A DNA stretch of 64,000 nucleotides from NCBI GenBank assembly GCA_013166775.1, contig JABLTJ010000002.1, positions 64,001-128,000 on the forward strand. Direction: 5' to 3'. The stretch is from Promethearchaeati archaeon (GTDB taxonomy: Archaea > Asgardarchaeota > Heimdallarchaeia > Heimdallarchaeales > Heimdallarchaeaceae). The position numbers were made by a program, and so were the translations under genes. Position 1 is the stretch's first letter. Each line of letters starts with the position of its first letter. Shown here piece by piece: positions 11,857 through 22,430 of this stretch. Below the pieces are notes generated by a model that had not been told where the DNA came from, did not search any database, and worked only from the letters and a program-made list of their open reading frames with translations.

Positions 11857-13353
11857 TCAAGTATCTTCTGCCTTTTTCTCCCATACAGGACGTTCTTCCT
11901 TATCATAGGTTTCCATAACATCTGCAGTAATTTTTGAGAGATTCTTCTGAATATCTTCAGAGATTCTTGTTCTTCTTCCAGTATGTCCTCTAAATGGATC
12001 TGATATATGGAAGAATAGAATTGTCTTATATGCTGTTGAAATTGGTCGTAAAATAGCTGTTGTAGGTAGATATCCGAATAAGAAAAAGACAGCTGCTACT
12101 GCTAGAGAGAACATAACTTTAAAGCTTATACCAGCAATTTCCCCTGCACTAATGCCGAATAAATCTGCTAACCAATAATAACCTAAGAAGAATCCTCCTG
12201 TTGAAAAGACACCAAATGTCATCACTGTAAAAAATCCTTTAGCAATATTCACTCCAGCTTTTCCTATAATAATATCAGCAGCAGAATCAACTGCTAAATC
12301 GGTAGATCTAATCATACTTTTAACAAATCCTTGTTTTTCAACTACGATTATTGTCAAAGTATAGTAATTAAGGAATTTTAGTACCTTCCATAACGCTTTC
12401 AGAAGTAGAATGAATAGGAAGAAGATTACAGTAAGTACTTTTAATGTTATTTTCACTGCTTTATTCTGTTTCCATTTTCCCCAGAATTTCTTCTTTGCGA
12501 AATATTGTACAGTTTTTATAATAGCATCAAAGAATGCCATAAACGTTCCAAATAGGATGATACTTCCTTTTACTTTCCAGATTTCTTTCATTGCGATTCT
12601 TATTGAAGCATCTTTATAATTATTCCATCTCTTGAAGATGCAAATATTTATTGCATCACTGAAATAGAGCATTGTCCAATGTATTGTCAAGTAAATAAAG
12701 ATTATAACGAAAAATACCAAGTATTCTAACCAATCAGATGTTCTACCAGATTGCTCTAACCAAGTATCTAAGTTTGCTCCTGCATAAATTGAACCAGCTA
12801 CTCCTGTTATTGTAGTTACTACAGAGATTACTGAAAAGAATAATACAGGTATCAATGTTCCTTTCTCTTCATTCACAGCTTCATTGCTCATCTCAAATAC
12901 TTTTGAACCAAGAATAATCCTTCTTGCTAGAAGTAGAACAATGACCAATATAAACGCAGCTGGTGCTAAAACTGCTATTCCTATCCATCTTAGATTTCCT
13001 TGATATTGAACAAGTAGAAAAACACCCGCAGCAATTAGTAAGGCTGTCCCTCCAAAAATAACTGTATTAACAAGTTCTGCACCTACATAGCTCATTAACC
13101 ATACTTCTAAATAAGCAATCAGAATTCCTATTACTAATAGAACTACAACTGCTAATATAACCCACCAAATGTAGCTTTCTACAAATGAGTAGGCTACACC
13201 AAATTTCGCAAGTACCCAATCTGTTAAGTTTTGGTTTATTGCAGTCATTTGATAAATAGAGTATGCACCGAATGCATAAGCAGCTAATACTATTAGAAAC
13301 CAAATATAGAAGATTAGACCGAAGTCTCTAACCTTTTGTTCTTCTGTAGCCAT
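11857..13353 (-). CDS. choline-transporter-like (CTL/SLC44/Pns1-like) multi-pass membrane protein
   Basis: About 10 TM. Motifs RRI...FEMSNEAV, GSIILFG, FLNYYTLTIIVVEKQGFVKS and AYKTILF...DP parallel the CTL family. ATG 13353 lies downstream of GGAGG. Confidence 0.6.
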   Translation of the reverse strand: MATEEQKVRDFGLIFYIWFLIVLAAYAFGAYSIYQMTAINQNLTDWVLAKFGVAYSFVESYIWWVILAVVVLLVIGILIAYLEVWLMSYVGAELVNTVIFGGTALLIAAGVFLLVQYQGNLRWIGIAVLAPAAFILVIVLLLARRIILGSKVFEMSNEAVNEEKGTLIPVLFFSVISVVTTITGVAGSIYAGANLDTWLEQSGRTSDWLEYLVFFVIIFIYLTIHWTMLYFSDAINICIFKRWNNYKDASIRIAMKEIWKVKGSIILFGTFMAFFDAIIKTVQYFAKKKFWGKWKQNKAVKITLKVLTVIFFLFILLLKALWKVLKFLNYYTLTIIVVEKQGFVKSMIRSTDLAVDSAADIIIGKAGVNIAKGFFTVMTFGVFSTGGFFLGYYWLADLFGISAGEIAGISFKVMFSLAVAAVFFLFGYLPTTAILRPISTAYKTILFFHISDPFRGHTGRRTRISEDIQKNLSKITADVMETYDKEERPVWEKKAEDT

Positions 13354-13444
13354 GTCTATTATTCTGCTCTCCTCCTTCAAAAATGTTTTCCAATATTATC
13401 TCATGTGGAAGGATTTTAAAGCTGCAATAATAATATTATGTCTT

Positions 13445-14353
13445 GTGAAAGCTGATCTAAATATAATTAGTCACATAGTTCTAGATGACAAAATTTTCTA
13501 TACAGAACATCCTCCTAGAAAAATAACGGAACAATTGGGAGGTCCAGTAGCTTATGCAAGTATGGTAATCCCGCTATTACAGGCAAGCACTCAATGTATT
13601 ACTTCAATTGGAAAAGATTTTCCTGAGGAATATCTGCTTTACCTAAATTCAATTAGAAACTATGGTCTTAAGATAGAGAATTCGGAAAAAACAACTAGAT
13701 TCTTACATGAAATACATCATGATCATCGAACCTTATTTCTAGTAGCACAAGCTAAATCTTTGGATAATTCTTTATTCTTGCTTGAAGGAGGAAAAGCATG
13801 CTTACTTTCTCCAGTTTTTGAGGAAATCTCAAAATCTTCAGTTGAATGGTCACGAGATAATCATGATTGGGTGGGAGTTGATGTACAAGGATTTGTTAGA
13901 AAAAAGGATGAAAATGGCAAGATTTATTCTTATTTCGACCAGAGTTTTTTCAGATACTTAATACAAAAAAACGACTTTGTTAAGTATTCTTTGAACGAAG
14001 CAATGAGTTTTACAAAACAGAAAGCTCACAGAGAGATATTAGATAAATTACCTAAGAATAATGTTCAAATCGTTACTATAGGAAATAAAGGAATCATTTA
14101 CTCTGATAATGGACAGTTCTATAAACTAGATGCACCTACACAAGATATCAAAGATCCTACAGGAGCAGGAGATGTTTTTATTACTGCTTTTCTTATAAAA
14201 TATCTTGAAACAAAAGAAGTTGATTTCTCACTTTCTTTTGGAATGGCTATAGCTGCTGAAAAAGTACATTACGATGAAATACAAATTTTACCCAAGAAGA
14301 ATTATAAATCGATAGCAGAAAAGATTCTCGAATCAAAGAAAGAGATAAGATAA
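13445..14353 (+). CDS. PfkB/ribokinase-family kinase
   Basis: LGGPVAY, VDVQGFVR, VTIGNKG, DPTGAGDVF. GTG 13445 is the likely start, avoiding overlap with the divergent gene. Confidence 0.88.
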   Translation: MKADLNIISHIVLDDKIFYTEHPPRKITEQLGGPVAYASMVIPLLQASTQCITSIGKDFPEEYLLYLNSIRNYGLKIENSEKTTRFLHEIHHDHRTLFLVAQAKSLDNSLFLLEGGKACLLSPVFEEISKSSVEWSRDNHDWVGVDVQGFVRKKDENGKIYSYFDQSFFRYLIQKNDFVKYSLNEAMSFTKQKAHREILDKLPKNNVQIVTIGNKGIIYSDNGQFYKLDAPTQDIKDPTGAGDVFITAFLIKYLETKEVDFSLSFGMAIAAEKVHYDEIQILPKKNYKSIAEKILESKKEIR

Positions 14354-14360
14354 AATCTCA

Positions 14361-14987
14361 TCAAGTGAGTTTAATATCAAGTTTTCCCATACTCTCAGAA
14401 ATAATCTTTCCATAATCCAAATTTTGCTCTTCTTTCAAAATATTCTCTAAATTTGCATTTGTGATTGGATGTTTAGGTCCTAATAAATCGCACACTTCAG
14501 GGCCAGCAGATATATCGAACGTTTTAATCTCTCTTGTTAGAAATATGATTTTCTCTTTATCGAATGTTATCAAAGGTTTCAATACACGGTATCTTGTTGC
14601 TTGTTCAATTACTGAGATATTAGCTAAAGTTTGACTCGATACTTGTCCTAAACTCTCTCCGGTTCCAATATATTCAGCTTTCTCAAGATCAGCTATTTCA
14701 CACCCTAACTTAAGCATAAGTCGTTTCATTAAAACGAAATAATACGAATGCTTACAATCATCCACTAGAGTTTGTAGAGCATCAGCTATATCTATAACAT
14801 ACATTTTCTTCCAATTGAACTTTTCAGAAATGAGCAAACTCTTCTCAATAGATTCTTCTCCTGCAAAATCAGTATTTGAAAAGTGCAGAGGAATTATCTC
14901 GAAACTCTTTTTCTGAAGAAGGTAACCAGCGATACTACTATCAAATCCACCACTTAATAAGAGTACAACTTTGTTAGTAGTCATCAT
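14361..14987 (-). CDS. ThiI-like PP-loop adenylation domain without THUMP
   Basis: LLSGGFDS, TGESLGQVSSQTLANI, VLKPLITFDKEKI; only 208 aa. Confidence 0.85.
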   Translation of the reverse strand: MMTTNKVVLLLSGGFDSSIAGYLLQKKSFEIIPLHFSNTDFAGEESIEKSLLISEKFNWKKMYVIDIADALQTLVDDCKHSYYFVLMKRLMLKLGCEIADLEKAEYIGTGESLGQVSSQTLANISVIEQATRYRVLKPLITFDKEKIIFLTREIKTFDISAGPEVCDLLGPKHPITNANLENILKEEQNLDYGKIISESMGKLDIKLT

Positions 14988-15049
14988 AATGCTGTAAATT
15001 TGGGACTTTTAGAATGTTTAGTTAAGGAAAAATTCTTTAATTTAAAATC

Positions 15050-15475
15050 ATGTTCAGATTTATGGAAATAACTCAATTCTCTACTGAAATGTATAATGAT
15101 GTATTCAAACTATGGAAAGATTCAGGTTTATCTCTTGGTGCTTCCGATACCAAGGATCAAGTAGAAAGATTGAGCGAAATGAATCCTGATTTATTCTTAG
15201 TTGGGATCAAAGATAGTAAAATTATAGCAGTAGTTGCAGGAGCCTTTGATGGGAGAAGAGGTTATGTACATCATTTAACAGTTGATAGTCAATACAGAAG
15301 GAAGGGATATGGAAGAAAAATGATGGAAGAGTTACACAAGCTGTTTTCCGAAAAAAATATAATCAAAGTTCACTTATTTGTTGAAATTGAAAGCGAAGAA
15401 GTGATAGAGTTTTATAAAAAAATCGGTTGGCATGTGCGAGATGATTTAGAGATGATGAGTTTTGTTCCTGAATAA
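15050..15475 (+). CDS. GNAT acetyltransferase (YpeA-like)
   Basis: FDGRRGYVHHLTV...YRRKGYGRKMM, VIEFYKKIGW. Confidence 0.9.
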   Translation: MFRFMEITQFSTEMYNDVFKLWKDSGLSLGASDTKDQVERLSEMNPDLFLVGIKDSKIIAVVAGAFDGRRGYVHHLTVDSQYRRKGYGRKMMEELHKLFSEKNIIKVHLFVEIESEEVIEFYKKIGWHVRDDLEMMSFVPE

Positions 15476-15547: not shown

Positions 15548-16318
15548 TTAAACTGGTGATATTTCAATATTTAGAACGTCAAGAATTCTTGTCATTTCTT
15601 TAACATCTTCGATTGTTTTTATTCTTAAAGCACTTCTAAACATTGTTGAATTTAATTCAGAGGCAGTTTTGAAAATGTCACGTTTTCTCCAGACATCAAC
15701 TGAGGGATTGTAAAGAAGAATGTACATCACTTTTTTGTCCATATCACAGAGAAGATAAGTGTCTGCATATTCCAATCTTTTTCCTATCATTTCTTTTAAT
15801 GTATTATCTTGGTTCACACCATAAATTCTGGGTATTTTACCTGAAAACATGTCTATCATTCTTGTATACATTTTCTTGATTGAACTTGGATCGATTCCAG
15901 ATTCTCTCTGCAAACCTCTAGCTATCAATGTGAAATATGGTTCTATTAATCCATAACTATCTAGAACTTCTCTTACTGCTATTCCTTCAAATAGGAAATA
16001 AGCTACGCACAATCTATAACCAGAAGCAGCAATTCTTTCATCTGCTGAACTTGTAATTTCTGTTTCAAAAGGTATTGCAATAGCTTTGATATTTTCATGA
16101 TCAGGAACAGGTATTGGACCTAACATTTTTGGATTTTTGGTTCCATCAACTTTTCCGATTGATCCTTTGTTCATCTCAACTAGTGTCATTCCACTCATTA
16201 CTAAAGTTAAGGCTGTATTTTCTTCTACTTCTGAATTGTTAAATAATATCTCGGGACCGTAGTCCTTGAATATACTGAATATCAATTTTGGTTCTTTTGA
16301 AACATTTGGATTTATCAT
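15548..16318 (-). CDS. uDENN/longin-like domain fused to gelsolin-like domain
   Basis: N-terminal LIFSIFKDYGPEIL (NPR2/FLCN-type F..GP). C-terminal PRIYGV...LEYADTYLLCD...VMYI...RKRDIFKTASEL fits the gelsolin-repeat consensus. Confidence 0.6.
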   Translation of the reverse strand: MINPNVSKEPKLIFSIFKDYGPEILFNNSEVEENTALTLVMSGMTLVEMNKGSIGKVDGTKNPKMLGPIPVPDHENIKAIAIPFETEITSSADERIAASGYRLCVAYFLFEGIAVREVLDSYGLIEPYFTLIARGLQRESGIDPSSIKKMYTRMIDMFSGKIPRIYGVNQDNTLKEMIGKRLEYADTYLLCDMDKKVMYILLYNPSVDVWRKRDIFKTASELNSTMFRSALRIKTIEDVKEMTRILDVLNIEISPV

Positions 16319-16329
16319 TTTGGCACTCC

Positions 16330-17325
16330 TTATTGTGTATCTTCTCTACTTGGTTGTTGATCTAATAGAATTGCTATTTCAGGAATCTTGCTGAGAATTT
16401 CGTATTTGACTTGTCGAGGCATTTCCTTTGAAGGATCGCGTTCTTTTTCCTCAACAAAAGCATTTAGAATCTCTTCTGCGAGAGATTGTGCTTTGGATTC
16501 ACTATCATCTCGATCAACAAATAGAACTATACTCCATCCTCCCATCTTGCGGATAACCATCTTTACAACACCAAGTTTCACTACATCCATTACAGAATCA
16601 CTTTCAAAGATGGTTGAAGCCATGATATTAAGCGCACTAATCAACCCCCCAAGTAGAGTACTATCATGTTCTTCGACTGTTTGATCAAATGTATAATCAA
16701 ACGCTGGGACTCCTCCTTCTTGAAGTATTATGACCCTCTTTGGATTAACTTCTTCCCTTAGAGGTGTTCTTCCTGTCATTCTGGAGATTATCCAATCAAA
16801 AGCTGTGTAGAAATTTTCTCCAGTTTTTACACTGACTGGATAAATTGAAACAGAACGATTGATATCTTCCATAATTACTTGAAAAGCTGGATCTTGTAAC
16901 AAATCTGCAAAAGGAACAGCTTCAGCTATATCTGTTTTATTTGCCAAGAAAAGAATAGAAGTTTTTTGTGGTATCTTATCTAGTAAACTAAAAATATACT
17001 CAAAAGATACATCTACGTGTCTAGATGTTTGAGTATCTATAACAAAAACCACTCCATCTATTTCACCTAATATATCTTGGAAATAAGGACTTTCTCTTGC
17101 TGTTTCTTCATCTGCTTCAATAATTGTAAGAATGGACTTACCATAAGTTACATTTATAAAACAAGTTAGTTGTGTTGGTTGCGCGTCTGAAACAGTACCA
17201 TATATCAAACGATTTACAACACTTGATTTACCTGATTTCTCTAATCCTAATATAACTATCTGTGGTTTCTTTCCTTCTTTATTTAGTAGAAGTTTATCCC
17301 TAACGAAAGAAAGATAACTACTCAT
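16330..17325 (-). CDS. Arf/Sar-family GTPase (G3-degenerate) fused to longin domain
   Basis: G1 GLEKSGKS, G2 PT, G4 NKTD, G5 SVK; G3 reads IEADEE. C-terminal VIILQEGGVP...DSTLLGGLISALN longin pattern. Confidence 0.85.
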   Translation of the reverse strand: MSSYLSFVRDKLLLNKEGKKPQIVILGLEKSGKSSVVNRLIYGTVSDAQPTQLTCFINVTYGKSILTIIEADEETARESPYFQDILGEIDGVVFVIDTQTSRHVDVSFEYIFSLLDKIPQKTSILFLANKTDIAEAVPFADLLQDPAFQVIMEDINRSVSIYPVSVKTGENFYTAFDWIISRMTGRTPLREEVNPKRVIILQEGGVPAFDYTFDQTVEEHDSTLLGGLISALNIMASTIFESDSVMDVVKLGVVKMVIRKMGGWSIVLFVDRDDSESKAQSLAEEILNAFVEEKERDPSKEMPRQVKYEILSKIPEIAILLDQQPSREDTQ

Positions 17326-18329
17326 TATCTGCGTCCTCCTTCAACCTCAAGTGGAAACTTACTCTCTAATACTTCACTCAGATTCTTTTGAGCTTCTGTA
17401 GGATTTCGACTGAAATTCTCTAGAATTCTTAATTGAATCTGTTGTGCTCTAGTTACTGGATCAATTGGGTCTATCATAACAGATAAACAGTAAGCTCCAC
17501 GTTTAACATGACTAACATGTTTTTTATAGAGGCTTTCTAGTTTTACAGATTGAATACTTTCTTTTGACTCTATAGCAAAGAGTTTGGTTAATTCCTTGAG
17601 TTTCTTAAAATCATTTGCAACGAGAGCTTGCTCACTTGGTCTACCAAATAAAGCTTCAGAGATAATGTTTCCATCAATATCACTTAAAACTGCTGCACCA
17701 ATCTTGACTTTCCATTGCTGAGCGCCACAAAGCACATCTACAATCCAATCCCATGCGCTATAAACTCCTTGTCCAGTTAAAGCAGACACTTTTTTAATGT
17801 TGAATGGTCTTAAATTTCTGAGAAATTTATCTAATTCAAATGATTCATTAATTTCCGATAATTCCTTTGAATTAGGTAGGTCTCCCTTGTTTGCTAAGAA
17901 TAGTACTGGAGCACTTTGTTTTGCGAAATTTATATAATGCCAGAATGTTTGTTTTGATTCATCAAATCGAGCGTGATCAGCTGAATCTACTAAATAGATT
18001 ACTGCATCAGCTCTCTCAATAAATTTTTTCCATAAACTTAATCTAAATGGTTGATGTCCTCCTAAATCAAAACAAGTAAAATTTAAATCACGATATTGAT
18101 AATTTTCTAAATTGACCCCATAAGTAGGTCTTACAACTATATCATCTTGTTTTAGTAGTTTTTTAACCAAAGATGTTTTTCCTGCTCTTTCTAACCCTAG
18201 CAGAGCAACACTAAATTTATTCCTTCCTACAACTGATTCTTGGCTAGTTTCTACCTTCGTTGGTTGTTCTTGTTGCTCTCTTCTCTTCTTTTCTTCCATT
18301 ATACGTTTTCGAAATTCATAGAAAGACAT
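17325..18329 (-). CDS. Arf/Sar1-like GTPase fused to roadblock-like domain
   Basis: GLERAGKT, PTYG, FDLGGH, VDSADHARFDESK, NKGD, SAL. C-terminal AAVLSDIDGNII. AGGTGA SD; TAATG overlap with the next gene. Confidence 0.9.
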   Translation of the reverse strand: MSFYEFRKRIMEEKKRREQQEQPTKVETSQESVVGRNKFSVALLGLERAGKTSLVKKLLKQDDIVVRPTYGVNLENYQYRDLNFTCFDLGGHQPFRLSLWKKFIERADAVIYLVDSADHARFDESKQTFWHYINFAKQSAPVLFLANKGDLPNSKELSEINESFELDKFLRNLRPFNIKKVSALTGQGVYSAWDWIVDVLCGAQQWKVKIGAAVLSDIDGNIISEALFGRPSEQALVANDFKKLKELTKLFAIESKESIQSVKLESLYKKHVSHVKRGAYCLSVMIDPIDPVTRAQQIQLRILENFSRNPTEAQKNLSEVLESKFPLEVEGGRR

Positions 18330-18510
18330 TCATTCACCTTAATTATCTGCAAGAGTGAGTTTTTTTCTCAGATACCTAATCAGAATTTAGTATCTTAACA
18401 TAGTAATTTAATGTTTCGCTAACTGTAATTTAGTCTAGATAACTAGAACGATTCACGCTTCATTCCATTCTATTTAAACATTAAGATAGTAAAAGCTACG
18501 CTTTCTAATC

Positions 18511-19332
18511 CTAACCTATCCATCTCAAGAAAAAGAACAGTATTGTGATAATTCCAAGTAACAAACACACAATAGCAAAATTATATTTTCTAGCTATAAG
18601 TAGAAAGAGTTCCATTGTCAAATAACCTACAATTGCTGTAATGATAATAGCAATTAATAATTGCCACCACACAAGAGGAAAAACATTACCTCCTTCTATC
18701 ATGATGACAATAAGATTTAGAAAAAAACCTCCCAAAACAGCAGGAATGCTCATGATAAAGCTCCCCTTAATGCTATCTTCTTTTTCCACTGACATGAACA
18801 ATAATCCGCTCATTGTTATACCAGATCTGCTAATACCAGGAATTATGGAAAAACCTTGTAACAGTCCACTGATAGTCATCTCTTTCTTAGAAGTATTCTC
18901 TATCAGTTTTCCTTCTCTATCTTGTCTTTTAGCGTAGTATAGAAGAGCAGCTGTAATTAACAAGGATATTCCAATGATGAGCATAAAATATTCTCCAATT
19001 TGAGAATTGGAACCTAGATGTCGTACCAAGAAATAACAAGGCACACCTGTGATTATTGTGCCTAGAGTACTTAAGAGAATAAACCATCTCCATTTTCTTA
19101 TTGTTTCTTCTTTAACTTGTGGATTAATGTATTGATATATTTCTTTTCGAAACTTTACTACTACAGCAATTAATGTTCCTAAATGCAGCCATAAAGATAT
19201 TTCTAGAGCTTCTTCAGGAGTAATTCCTAGAAAACCTGTTAATAGAGTTATAGTTTGCCCTTCTGAACTTACTGGTAACCATTCCAGAACTCCTTGAAGA
19301 AACGCAAAAGCAATAATAATCCATAGAAGCAT
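18511..19332 (-). CDS. uppP: undecaprenyl/polyprenyl-diphosphate phosphatase (BacA family)
   Basis: QGVLEWLPVSSEG, LHLGT, PGISRSG.T. Confidence 0.93.
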   Translation of the reverse strand: MLLWIIIAFAFLQGVLEWLPVSSEGQTITLLTGFLGITPEEALEISLWLHLGTLIAVVVKFRKEIYQYINPQVKEETIRKWRWFILLSTLGTIITGVPCYFLVRHLGSNSQIGEYFMLIIGISLLITAALLYYAKRQDREGKLIENTSKKEMTISGLLQGFSIIPGISRSGITMSGLLFMSVEKEDSIKGSFIMSIPAVLGGFFLNLIVIMIEGGNVFPLVWWQLLIAIIITAIVGYLTMELFLLIARKYNFAIVCLLLGIITILFFFLRWIG

Positions 19333-19390
19333 CTGTTATTCCTTAAATTGACTATTGTATAAAAAATTATGTAAAAGAGCTTTAGTATTG

Positions 19391-19828
19391 CTATTCTTCA
19401 CTAATTCTCCGGCGAATGTAATTTTCTAGTTTTTCCCCAGCTGGAACTATTTCTATGTCTTCAATTAATTTGTTCTCAATATCACTACCTTCTATCAACA
19501 GAATCCAACCTTCTCCATAGGCATCAGTGTTGATTAAATCAGGTGTTTTTCTTAGTTGATCATTTTTCTCTATAATTATACCAGCAATAGGAGCTCGAAT
19601 TTGTCCAACCCATTTTCCACTTTCATAGGTCCCAATTATCTGGTTTTTTTTCACTCTCTGTCCCTCTTTCATCGTTCGAACAAATTCAATTTTTCCTGCT
19701 CTTTTTGAAGCATAATCGTCTATCCCCAACTGAATGATACTTTCAGATTTTCTTCTAATCCATACATGACCTGGATCTCTTAGAATGTAAAACAAATCAT
19801 CTGGGAAATCGTATTGTTCAATTTTCAT
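19391..19828 (-). CDS. GcvH-like lipoyl carrier protein (LbpA-type)
   Basis: HVW, GIDDYA, ESGKWVG lipoyl-Lys motif, INTDAYGEGWI. Confidence 0.88.
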   Translation of the reverse strand: MKIEQYDFPDDLFYILRDPGHVWIRRKSESIIQLGIDDYASKRAGKIEFVRTMKEGQRVKKNQIIGTYESGKWVGQIRAPIAGIIIEKNDQLRKTPDLINTDAYGEGWILLIEGSDIENKLIEDIEIVPAGEKLENYIRRRISEE

Positions 19829-21237
19829 AACATAAACCTACTTGCTAATTTTAACGCTGTTTTTAAACTAATTACTGGGAACAATTTAAATCTTGGTGGG
19901 ATTACTTTCCCAGGATTACTTATTCCTTTTGGGTCAACTATCTTTTTGAATTCTTTATACTTCTTGTATCGTTCTTTTCCAAAAATAGCTTGATAATATC
20001 CTGAAAACCATAGTCCAGTAGTGTATGGATATCCTTTAACTTTTATCCCTTTGAGTACGTTTTTATACAAATCCAGATTGACTCGAAGCTTCTTAAATGG
20101 ACCTAGTTTTTCTTCGAAATATAGAAACATTAGAAGCGAATAATGAGTTTTACCAATCATTTCTCCCTCAAGATGAATTTGTCCATCAATCTTTGAAGAT
20201 AATTTCTGCAGATATTTGCTACTTGTTTCTATGGGAAGAATTATTTCATTAGTAAGGTAATCCTTATACTCTTTTAACATTGCAAACGTCTTAAAACGAA
20301 TATTCCATATATTGATAATGTATCTCCTGTCTAAAATTTGCCCTCCTGCATTTCTTACTGTTTGGTTGAAGCTGAGATTAAATTCGTTTTCTTCTTCTTC
20401 ATAGCTAATTTCTTTTGAAACAATAATAACATATCTTTCAGGAAGCGAATATCCAAAAGACTGGTTAATCTCTTCAACATGTTTTGGATTAAAGAACCAT
20501 ATAGAATAAGGATCGATTTCGGAAATTTCTTTCAATCCCTTAGCTAATTGTAGTGGTGAATCAAAGGTGCATCCGAACTGTTTTAGAGGAATATCAAATT
20601 TAATTTTTAATTGTATTCTTGTAATTAATCCCAAAGTTCCATTTGAACCAACAAAAAGTTCTAAATCCTCTTTTTCAGTGATCTTCTTTATTTCTCCTGT
20701 TGGTAATACCACATCCAAAGCTAAAATTTGATCTAAAGCTCCTCCATATTTAGCACTACCCACACCATAACCACCATGAGCAATCCAACCGCCAATTGTA
20801 GCAGAATGAAAGCTTGAAGGATATGAGCAAAGAGAGAATCCTTGGAGATTTAGCTTTCTTTGCAGCTCTGAAATCACTGTTGCAGGACTAACTAAAACGG
20901 ATTGATCAAAGGGTTCAATCAACAGCTCACTTTCTAAACCTTTAACGTCGACAATTATACCCCTTTTGTAGGTGACACATCCACCAAAACCTGCTGTTCC
21001 ACCACTTCTTGGAGTGACAGGTACCTTATTTTCCGTCGCAAGCTCGTAGAGCTTTTTCACTTCTTCAGTAGTAGATGGAAGTACTACTGCATCAGCTGTA
21101 TTATTGTAGAATAGCCTTGTGATTGGTGGTAAATCTGCTAAATCTCTAGAATAAATTCGAATAGTCGTTTCATCATCTCTAAAACCTTTTCCTAAGTGTC
21201 GCACGAATTTAGTACGAACTTTATTTTTCAAGGTCAT
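19825..21237 (-). CDS. FAD-linked oxidoreductase (GlcD/D-lactate dehydrogenase, VAO family)
   Basis: PVTPRSGGT, YPSS...ATIGGWIA, GSNGTLGLIT, DPKGISNPGK. Confidence 0.9.
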   Translation of the reverse strand: MTLKNKVRTKFVRHLGKGFRDDETTIRIYSRDLADLPPITRLFYNNTADAVVLPSTTEEVKKLYELATENKVPVTPRSGGTAGFGGCVTYKRGIIVDVKGLESELLIEPFDQSVLVSPATVISELQRKLNLQGFSLCSYPSSFHSATIGGWIAHGGYGVGSAKYGGALDQILALDVVLPTGEIKKITEKEDLELFVGSNGTLGLITRIQLKIKFDIPLKQFGCTFDSPLQLAKGLKEISEIDPYSIWFFNPKHVEEINQSFGYSLPERYVIIVSKEISYEEEENEFNLSFNQTVRNAGGQILDRRYIINIWNIRFKTFAMLKEYKDYLTNEIILPIETSSKYLQKLSSKIDGQIHLEGEMIGKTHYSLLMFLYFEEKLGPFKKLRVNLDLYKNVLKGIKVKGYPYTTGLWFSGYYQAIFGKERYKKYKEFKKIVDPKGISNPGKVIPPRFKLFPVISLKTALKLASRFML

Positions 21238-22430
21238 TTTTTACCCTCCACCATTCGACTGACCAATTCAGCTATATCAATTACTTCAACATCCATTTCT
21301 CTTTGTTTAATTCCTTGTTGAATAGTATCTAAACAAGTTGGACACCCATTAACAACAATGTTAGCTTCTGAATATTGAATTTCAGATATTAGGTGGGAAT
21401 TGACTTGTCCAACTAATTCTTCATCATTTAGTTTTAGTAAACCACCTCCTCCACAACAAAGTGATTCTTCCCTATTAGATGGTAGTTCTTCATATCTGAC
21501 ATTAGGAATGTTTTTGATTACTTCCCTTGGAGCATCACTTAATCCACAATGTCTCACTAGTTCACATGGATCTTTGAATGTTATTTTTTCTTTAATTGGA
21601 TTAATTACTTTCAGTTTCTTTTCTTCGAAAAGTTCATTTGCTAATTCAGAAATATGAACTACTTCGATATCCCACTCTTCACCCAAGACTCTGGGGTAAA
21701 CTATTTTGAAAGCTCTATAACATCCTGCACAAGCTGTAACTACTTTCTTAACACCAAGTTTCTTGAATTGATCTAAGTTATGTTTTGCGAAAGTCTTCCC
21801 AACGGAAAAACCACCAGCTAAGAAAATTGGAGAACCACAACACCTTTCTTCAGTTCCTAAGATAGTGAAGTTTAATTTTGCTTTTCTAAGAATCTTAACA
21901 ACGCTTTCTGCTATACTTCCCATTTTACCAGAATATGAGGCTTGACATCCCACGAAATACGCTAAAGGTGCTTTCTTTTGCGTTCGTCTAGACATATTCA
22001 TACCACTTAATGCTGCCCAAGAAACTCTTTCTTCAGTAGGTAGCCCAAAAATATTAAAGAAATCTTTTACTCTGTTATAGAGAGATAAGAGTTTGGGATT
22101 CCATCTTCCTCTTTTGAATGCTTCTTGTCTTATCTGTTCCCAAACTTTCAACAAAGGAAGATCAACAATACAGATGTCTTCACAAGCACGACATGCAGTA
22201 CAAAGGAATACGCTTTCAAATAGCTGTTTAGAGACGTCGTTTCTCAACTTGTCCTTTATTTCTTCTGAATAATATAGTTTAATCTGATCCAAAATCCCTC
22301 TTGGATGATTAACCTCCCATTTAAGTTCCTTATAGGTCGGACATAATGAACAATAACCACAATATACACATTTTTGTGCTACATCCAATACATCTACTTG
22401 CCAACCTTGTAGAGAACTCATCTGCAACAA
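21234..22430 (-). CDS. Fe-S oxidoreductase with two CCG domains (HdrD/GlcF-like)
   Basis: CVYCGYC..CP, CTACRAC..IC, YFVGC, ERCCG, TACAGC, DPC, LCCGGGG, CPTC. Confidence 0.92.
   Translation of the reverse strand: MLQMSSLQGWQVDVLDVAQKCVYCGYCSLCPTYKELKWEVNHPRGILDQIKLYYSEEIKDKLRNDVSKQLFESVFLCTACRACEDICIVDLPLLKVWEQIRQEAFKRGRWNPKLLSLYNRVKDFFNIFGLPTEERVSWAALSGMNMSRRTQKKAPLAYFVGCQASYSGKMGSIAESVVKILRKAKLNFTILGTEERCCGSPIFLAGGFSVGKTFAKHNLDQFKKLGVKKVVTACAGCYRAFKIVYPRVLGEEWDIEVVHISELANELFEEKKLKVINPIKEKITFKDPCELVRHCGLSDAPREVIKNIPNVRYEELPSNREESLCCGGGGLLKLNDEELVGQVNSHLISEIQYSEANIVVNGCPTCLDTIQQGIKQREMDVEVIDIAELVSRMVEGKK

Follow-up and report, generated by a model that had tools for sequence, protein, structure and literature searches.

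A Heimdallarchaeial Arf-like GTPase with a Sar1-type catalytic histidine probably belongs to a conserved three-gene module and not to the Sar1 lineage

Introduction

Arf GTPases carry a catalytic glutamine at the end of the G3 motif, and Sar1 has in its place a histidine (FDLGGH) that orients the attacking water. Sar1 works with Sec23/24, the gelsolin domain of which supplies an arginine finger, and with Sec12. A histidine in G3 also occurs in one other eukaryotic protein of the Arf family, SRbeta, which has the motif D-x-P-G-H and binds the longin-like SRX domain. The present study concerns P0001, a gene that also encodes FDLGGH, in a 64,000-nucleotide stretch of DNA from a Promethearchaeati archaeon of the family Heimdallarchaeaceae (assembly GCA_013166775.1, contig JABLTJ010000002.1, positions 64,001 to 128,000; hereafter the window). 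A sequence-only reading of the window had described it as an archaeal Arf-related GTPase with two Sar1-like signatures, FDLGGH and LVDSADHARFDESK, while allowing that convergence was possible.

Among the best G-domain matches of P0001 in structure and sequence are the Asgard ArfR proteins, which are likewise Heimdallarchaeial and share its N-terminal helix (HodArfR1, 8OUK/8OUL; GerdArfR1, 8OUM; Vargova et al., bioRxiv 10.1101/2024.02.28.582541). Unlike P0001, ArfRs are single-domain proteins with a catalytic glutamine and a shorter switch II spacing, and they group with eukaryotic Arf and Sar1. Asgard GTPases that combine an Arf-annotated G domain with a longin or roadblock domain, and are structurally Rag-like, have already been described (PMC10933270; PMC11914678), and an operon-encoded GTPase pair from MK-D1 was modelled by Tran et al. 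(2024; PMC10933270). On the side of possible regulators, a GP motif was found to be specific to longins of the GTPase-activating protein (GAP) type (FLCN, NPRL2, SMCR8, C9orf72) and to some Heimdallarchaeial longins, the client GTPase of which was stated as an open question (PMC12290439).

P0001 shares features with several of these systems. As in Sar1, an Arf-family G domain with FDLGGH is preceded by an N-terminal helix in a protein that is not myristoylated, and a GAP acting in trans is expected for it too; Sar1, however, is a single domain of ~190 aa, whereas P0001 adds a longin-like C-terminal domain of 130 aa and lies in an operon with a pseudo-GTPase. As in Rag/Gtr and Asgard Rag-like GTPases (RagA/C; LokiRagM, 9M28; LokiRagO, 8YL2; the MK-D1 pair, PMC10933270), the G domain is followed by a roadblock/longin-type domain, two paralogues are adjacent and a FLCN/NPRL2-like longin protein is the candidate GAP. 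It is unlike these GTPases in that its G domain is of the Arf type (133 vs 26 bits) with a catalytic histidine, its partner is without DxxG, and its C-terminal domain has the strand and helix order of a longin rather than of a roadblock domain. Among earlier groupings of Asgard GTPases, the one called "ArfL" is probably where P0001 belongs.

Results and Discussion

We consider it likely that P0001 is the catalytically competent GTPase in a conserved module of three genes of Heimdallarchaeia, that its histidine is convergent, and that it belongs to an archaeal radiation of two-domain Arf-like GTPases and not to the crown formed by ArfR, Arf and Sar1. The phylogenetic trees, an indel in switch II and profile scores indicate that this histidine (His92) was gained independently of Sar1 and that P0001 is by descent an archaeal Arf-like, Rag-built GTPase and no relative of Sar1. 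His92 is a homoplastic replacement at the position of the catalytic glutamine of Arf and of the histidine of Sar1; it is conserved and hints at a function. Convergence, which the sequence-only reading had held out as a possibility, is what the evidence favours.

Translation of the open reading frame confirmed both FDLGGH and LVDSADHARFDESK where they had been described, and placed them among the following features:

17325-18329, reverse strand: gene P0001 (open reading frame list and translation), open over 334 aa, a His-type Arf-like GTPase with its TAA stop at 17325-17327
18270-18323, reverse strand: predicted N-terminal helix, residues 3-20 (SFYEFRKRIMEE...), from the AlphaFold2 (AF2) model, its start invariant among orthologues
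17730-18224, reverse strand: G domain, residues 36-200 (Pfam Arf match over residues 36-198)
18174-18197, reverse strand: G1/P-loop, GLERAGKT, residues 45-52, with G45, L46, E47, A49, G50, K51 and T52 invariant
18054-18071, reverse strand: G3, FDLGGH, residues 87-92 (sequence read), the His92 codon CAT at 18054-18056, with D88, G90, G91 and H92 invariant
18030-18053, reverse strand: switch II, QPFRLSLW, residues 93-100, with one inserted residue that Arf, Arl, ArfR and Sar1 do not have (spacing count and alignment)
17952-17993, reverse strand: LVDSADHARFDESK, residues 113-126, from strand beta4 into helix alpha3 (sequence read)
17880-17891, reverse strand: G4, NKGD, residues 147-150, with N147, K148 and D150 invariant
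17349-17717, reverse strand: longin-like C-terminal domain, residues 205-327 (AF2 secondary structure, Foldseek, VIA and conserved columns)

The remaining G motifs are intact (switch I with Thr69; G5 with SAL at residues 182-184). That P0001 is an archaeal Arf-related GTPase with histidine at the catalytic position, as had been proposed, was borne out. FDLGGH is no chance occurrence here: Pfam Arf (PF00025) matched residues 36-198 with 133.3 bits (E 8.1e-39, cut-off 22.3), far above SRPRB (PF09439; 37.9 bits, cut-off 25) and Gtr1_RagA (PF04670; 25.7 bits, cut-off 22), and from NCBIfam the generic small_GTP model alone matched. Among 16 full-length orthologues, the most distant of them with 68% identity, His92 does not vary, and each of the 38 orthologous sequences or fragments in which the G3 site is covered reads D-x-GGH. 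By whole-genome search, an orthologue with at least 68% identity occurs in 28/28 genomes of the window's family, and all named orthologues belong to Heimdallarchaeaceae or to Heimdallarchaeota metagenome-assembled genomes (MAGs). S2, F3, E5, F6 and R7 at the N-terminus are also invariant. The second proposed signature did not hold as a mark of Sar1: within LVDSADHARFDESK, L113, V114, D115, S116, A117 and D118 are invariant among orthologues and His119 varies (H, E, T or N), and the motif VDSADxxRFxE is matched equally by Arl3, which reads VIDSADRKRFEE.

A maximum-likelihood (ML) tree was built with IQ-TREE (LG+C20+F+G4, posterior mean site frequency [PMSF]) from 105 G domains and 167 columns, including 15 verified Sar1 sequences, and was rooted on three Ras-like GTPases of the window's own genome. 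Sar1 was monophyletic (100/100) and nested in a clade of 44 rows (97/88) with eukaryotic Arf and Arl and the three canonical ArfRs of the own genome, the crown referred to above; published ArfR trees likewise unite ArfR with eukaryotic Arf, Arl and Sar1 (Vargova et al., bioRxiv 10.1101/2024.02.28.582541). P0001 fell outside this crown, in an 8-row clade (99/90), where its orthologues are joined by P0075 (His) and by P0046 (His) paired with P0047 (Gln), the last from a Heimdallarchaeota MAG, and the surroundings of this clade are archaeal two-domain GTPases in which His and Gln types are mixed. In the ML phylogeny that had been proposed for placing it, which here is a tree without SRbeta, P0001 nests among Gln-bearing Asgard GTPases, P0047 being one of its sisters, and far from Sar1, the placement that the sequence-only reading had named as refuting its Sar1 interpretation. 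A special relationship to Sar1 is not supported, in view of the separate clades with the 97/88 branch between them, the profiles, the indel and the motifs, with a caveat from one constrained tree that is taken up below. The own genome's three ArfR genes (C76:86291-86857, C105:804-1358 and C47:16126-16689) encode single-domain proteins of 184-188 aa with DVAGQ and N-terminal helices of the form MSxF..., and it is these Gln-type ArfRs, not the His-type gene, that are its closest kin to eukaryotic Arf, Arl and Sar1.

With Sar1 counted, the histidine state requires 13 changes on the ML tree, and a tree that forced all His rows into one clade was rejected (log-likelihood difference 321.6; approximately unbiased [AU] test, p=0.0005). 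Several sister pairs differ in their His/Gln state (P0100 and the own-genome paralogue C16; P0138 and own-genome C97b; P0072 and P0087). The codons of Gln and His are one third-position base apart (CAR/CAY), which fits frequent switching. Histidine has thus arisen at this position repeatedly in archaeal Arf-like GTPases. The C16 paralogue (C16:92762-93715, forward strand, outside the window) is a second Arf-like GTPase of 317 aa with a C-terminal domain and FDLGGH; it is solitary, and its tree sister P0100 has Gln.

Characters other than the tree place P0001 with the same archaeal group. The spacing between the G3 residue and the following Trp is 7 in P0001, P0046, P0047, P0051, P0075, the own-genome paralogues and 43 of the 58 other archaeal-type rows, His and Gln types alike. 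It is 6 in 42/44 crown rows (Arf/Arl/ArfR/Sar1) and in 49/49 Sar1 sequences; the last count is partly circular, the pattern used to find these sequences having fixed the distance from FDLGGH to WK, and the counts for Arf, Arl and ArfR are independent of that pattern. Group profile hidden Markov models (HMMs) scored the P0001 G domain at 197 bits for the archaeal fused group, the profile of which was built without P0001's own clade, at 147 for Arf/Arl, at 134 for ArfR and at 90 for Sar1. In switch I, P0001 has PTYGVN, compared with PTIGFN in Arf and PTLHPT (PTxHPT) in Sar1; its G4 region reads ANKGD, compared with ANKQD and GNKID, respectively; and its G5 region, SALTGQG, resembles that of Arl3 (SALTGEG, within CSALTGEG). 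The loop of 8-11 residues that Sar1 has before beta6 is absent from the aligned P0001 sequence.

Word-index homologue searches from P0001 returned named Arl3, Arf1 and Arl2 and never Sar1 or SRbeta, and the giant-virus literature that was checked for Sar1 sequences reported no Sar1. Sar1 references were obtained by scanning metagenome contigs with a degenerate DNA pattern (FDLGGH-x6-WK-x45-GNKID), which yielded 49 intronless full-length Sar1 open reading frames of 187-235 aa, 46 of them below 200 aa. When two of these were compared with the PDB, one was close to vertebrate SAR1B (413 bits) and a divergent one scored 209 bits with Sar1 and 96 with Arf; genuine recovered Sar1 sequences gave 190-413 bits with Sar1 chains and at most 96 with Arf. 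P0001 itself scored 57-73 bits with Sar1 and 87-98 with Arf1 and Arl3, its highest eukaryotic pairwise scores, and its best 60 PDB matches (104-83 bits) consisted of Arf, Arl and ArfR proteins, Sar1 not being among them. Arl3, which also shares the VIDSADRKRFEE and CSALTGEG segments, and Arf1 differ from P0001 in their G3 glutamine, spacing of 6, single domain and position in the other clade. The resemblance to Sar1 that had been noted locally stood for residues 84-130, where identity was 20-21/46 to Sar1 and 17-18/46 to Arl3 and Arf1, and failed over the whole G domain, where the order was reversed: 29-30% for Sar1, 33-36% for Arf/Arl and 41-44% for P0046/P0047.

In the AF2 model (mean predicted local distance difference test score [pLDDT] 72), the N-terminal helix (residues 3-20) is followed by a low-complexity linker rich in K, E and Q (residues 21-35), which is disordered (pLDDT <50 at 21-34), and then by the G domain and the C-terminal domain. 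The nearest structures to the G domain by Foldseek and VIA were Arf1, Arf6, Arl8 and HodArfR1 (Z 19-19.6); in VIA, Arf1 reached Z 19.6, HodArfR1 19.1, Sar1 17.6 and SRbeta 15.4 and 14.8, and the top Foldseek matches were 8ouk, Arl3 and 8oum. The C-terminal domain has the order beta-beta-alpha-beta-beta-beta-alpha-alpha (residues 205-327, pLDDT ~72-89), which is of the longin/roadblock superfamily type, and carries conserved D290-P291...R294 and a C-terminal FPL[DE] motif; Pfam gave zero matches to the C-terminal domains of P0001, P0002, P0046, P0047 and P0051. The RagA chains 6u62_B and 6ces_A aligned to full-length P0001 over ~310 columns (Foldseek), and LokiRagM (9m28_A) aligned to residues 37-290 (VIA). 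The PDB holds solved Lokiarchaeal Rag-like GTPases (LokiRagM, 9m28; LokiRagO, 8yl2) and a Roadblock-Longin protein (8yqg), and within the literature searched no paper on these three entries turned up.

P0001 is the first gene of an operon, and the other features of this locus are as follows:

16330-17325, reverse strand: gene P0002, a pseudo-GTPase paralogue of 331 aa with the two-domain build of P0001 (Pfam Arf, 5.4e-18)
15548-16318, reverse strand: gene P0003, a longin protein of 256 aa (AF2 model, VIA and Foldseek; without a Pfam match)
18330-18510, reverse strand: AT-rich intergenic leader of 181 nt upstream of the operon (sequence read)

The leader contains a Shine-Dalgarno-like GGTGA (18334-18338) and a TTTAAATA box (18471-18478), to which roles as putative ribosome-binding site and promoter can be assigned. 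The ATG of P0002 overlaps the stop of P0001 (TAATG), an arrangement of translationally coupled genes, and the P0002 and P0001 families aligned over 276 columns that span both domains (hhalign probability 99.9). In P0002, the G3 motif is replaced by IIEADEE, so that an acidic D72-x-E74 stands instead of DxxG and the invariant Glu74 aligns to His92. Its P-loop (G1) is kept in all five sequences compared, and NKxD is kept within its own family (N129 invariant), with NQKQ in the sister-family copy.

P0003 has a longin fold, with VIA matches to a Loki longin (8yqg_B, Z 12.0), Lst4 (10.7), a chain of the FLCN complex (10.6), GATOR1 (8fw5_B, 9.4) and the SRP (signal recognition particle) receptor chain 6frk_y (6.8). 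GATOR1/SEA subunits were its best matches by Foldseek, in which FLCN was also matched. The longin matches thereby take in FLCN, Lst4 and GAP subunits of the NPRL type. Residues 163-251 are weakly gelsolin-like (Thor ProGel, 7c2f_D, Z 6.2 by VIA). An invariant Gly21-Pro22 lies between the first two longin strands and matches the signature of GAP longins (PMC12290439), and R95, R102 and R116 are among the invariant arginines. P0003 is, on these grounds, a candidate GAP or regulator of the P0001/P0002 pair.

In their own family, the three genes follow one another in the same order at 15/15 loci examined (the window, L153-155 and L160-170, one of them cut by a contig end). The same holds at 7/7 loci from a sister family in the same class, in which the lead gene is 37-40% identical to P0001; a His-type gene heads the operon in all 22 loci of both families. 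Six sister-family genomes have two paralogues, of which the operon copy reads DLGGH and the solitary copy D[LI]GGQ (6/6). The two copies are sisters in the tree (100/95), and the solitary Gln copy is therefore most simply explained by duplication out of the operon. Within the P0001 operon there is no Sec23- or Sec12-like gene.

On this basis, a mechanism can be proposed. P0001 would bind and hydrolyse GTP as the hydrolysing subunit, with His92 orienting the attacking water by analogy to Sar1. Hydrolysis by P0001 alone would be slow and could be stimulated in trans by the presumably co-transcribed P0003, a GP-motif longin protein like FLCN/NPRL2 that may supply an arginine. P0001 and P0002 could pair through their C-terminal domains, as in RagA/RagC or the MK-D1 operon pair. 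A complex prediction for these two domains gave no verdict (score 0.01, mark 0.32) and counts neither way.

Other explanations of the histidine have to be weighed against this proposal. First, the residue could be a near-neutral Gln/His flip without meaning, the protein behaving like a Gln type, or it could turn P0001 into an essentially non-hydrolysing, nucleotide-bound scaffold. The exchange of Gln and His by a single-base change at least 12-13 times in the radiation, and the existence of sister pairs that differ in this state alone, are consistent with such a flip. However, wherever the gene stands in the operon (22/22 loci), His92 is kept without exception in two families with an identity of only ~38-40%, and the duplicate outside it is Gln in 6/6 genomes; histidine kept in the operon and glutamine outside it argue for selection on the residue in the operon context, and we regard this first explanation as improbable.

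Second, P0001 could be a true archaeal sister or precursor of Sar1, its histidine inherited in common and the C-terminal domain lost on the way to Sar1. The two share the catalytic residue within an identical FDLGGH, Sar1 has by a small margin the highest identity to P0001 over residues 84-130, and the weak gelsolin-like domain of P0003 recalls the Sec23 gelsolin domain that supplies the arginine finger of Sar1. A tree in which the 8-row clade of P0001 was forced beside Sar1 was, moreover, not formally rejected (log-likelihood difference 29.7, AU p=0.092), and this is the main caveat to an independent origin. Nevertheless, the ML tree sets Sar1 with Arf, Arl and ArfR across the 97/88 branch, the switch II spacing differs, the Sar1 profile is the worst of the four (90 bits), and P0001 lacks the Sar1 loop and resembles Arf in switch I, G4 and G5. 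In addition, the histidine is homoplastic, a single His clade having been rejected, the sister P0047 has Gln, and the gelsolin match is weak and is to an actin-binding ProGel rather than to Sec23. That P0001 is a sister or precursor of Sar1 is very unlikely. Finally, a relationship to SRbeta, with the longin-like domain fused or encoded in the operon, is the least credible of these explanations: the SRPRB match is above its cut-off, SRbeta chains align in structure, one longin-type domain is fused and another lies in the operon, and 6frk_y is among the matches of P0003, but SRPRB reaches 38 bits where the Arf profile reaches 133, the structural Z values are under those of Arf and Sar1, the charged N-terminus is without a transmembrane anchor, and the motif is DLGGH rather than D-x-P-G-H. 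Published ArfR trees also suggest a grouping of SRbeta with Arf and ArfR.

Membership of P0001 in the archaeal two-domain radiation, as a competent GTPase with a convergent histidine, is accordingly the reading that we prefer, and several points weigh against it in addition to the constrained tree and the local identity to Sar1. SRbeta and the full set of Arl paralogues were left out of the tree, and its backbone is poorly resolved, 32 of 102 branches having support below 80. The His-type relatives P0075 and the C16 paralogue are solitary. GTP hydrolysis by P0001, its heterodimerisation with P0002 and the GAP action of P0003 are inferred. The N-terminal helix also has an average hydrophobic moment (0.47, genome median 0.45); a membrane-binding amphipathic helix is for this reason not claimed, and conservation of the helix leaves membrane binding as a possibility only.

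A more specific and tentative idea, which we think rather less likely to be right than wrong, is that the histidine marks an operon-locked lineage, in which the His-type GTPase, the pseudo-GTPase and the GP-motif longin have co-evolved in at least two Heimdallarchaeial families as a native Rag-like switch tuned to a longin GAP acting in trans. If so, this switch would be the first client of the Asgard "GAP longins" to be defined from genomes, their partner having been left open (PMC12290439), and, the duplicate outside the operon having Gln, a natural His/Gln experiment. A strict link between histidine and operon over the whole radiation was rejected, P0075 and the C16 paralogue being His-type yet solitary.

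The analysis removes a tempting false lead, in that an Asgard GTPase with a Sar1-type histidine should not be taken as evidence for an archaeal Sar1 or COPII switch. It also defines a small conserved module in which a His-type GTPase is accompanied by a pseudo-GTPase and by a longin protein like FLCN/NPRL2. From this module one could learn how Rag-like GTPase pairs and GAPs of the longin type functioned before there were eukaryotes, and if hydrolysis that depends on a GAP is affected by having His rather than Gln. The Asgard Arf literature that we searched does not mention His-type catalytic sites, and the tight tie of the His type to the pseudo-GTPase/longin operon appears to be undescribed.

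Flanking genes

In the sister family, the operon has a fourth gene just downstream of the P0003 homologue, encoding a small Ras/Roc-like GTPase of ~175 aa (L152:8513-8893, where it is called as 126 aa; L171:6511-7038; also L175, L177 and L181), a gene that neither the window nor the rest of its family has. The gene order around the operon is conserved (window 18511-22430 and 11857-15475; L154 and L155). Upstream lie genes for an HdrD-like CCG protein, a FAD oxidase, a GcvH-like protein and BacA, and downstream are those for an acetyltransferase, a ThiI-like protein, a PfkB kinase and a choline-transporter-like (PF04515) protein.

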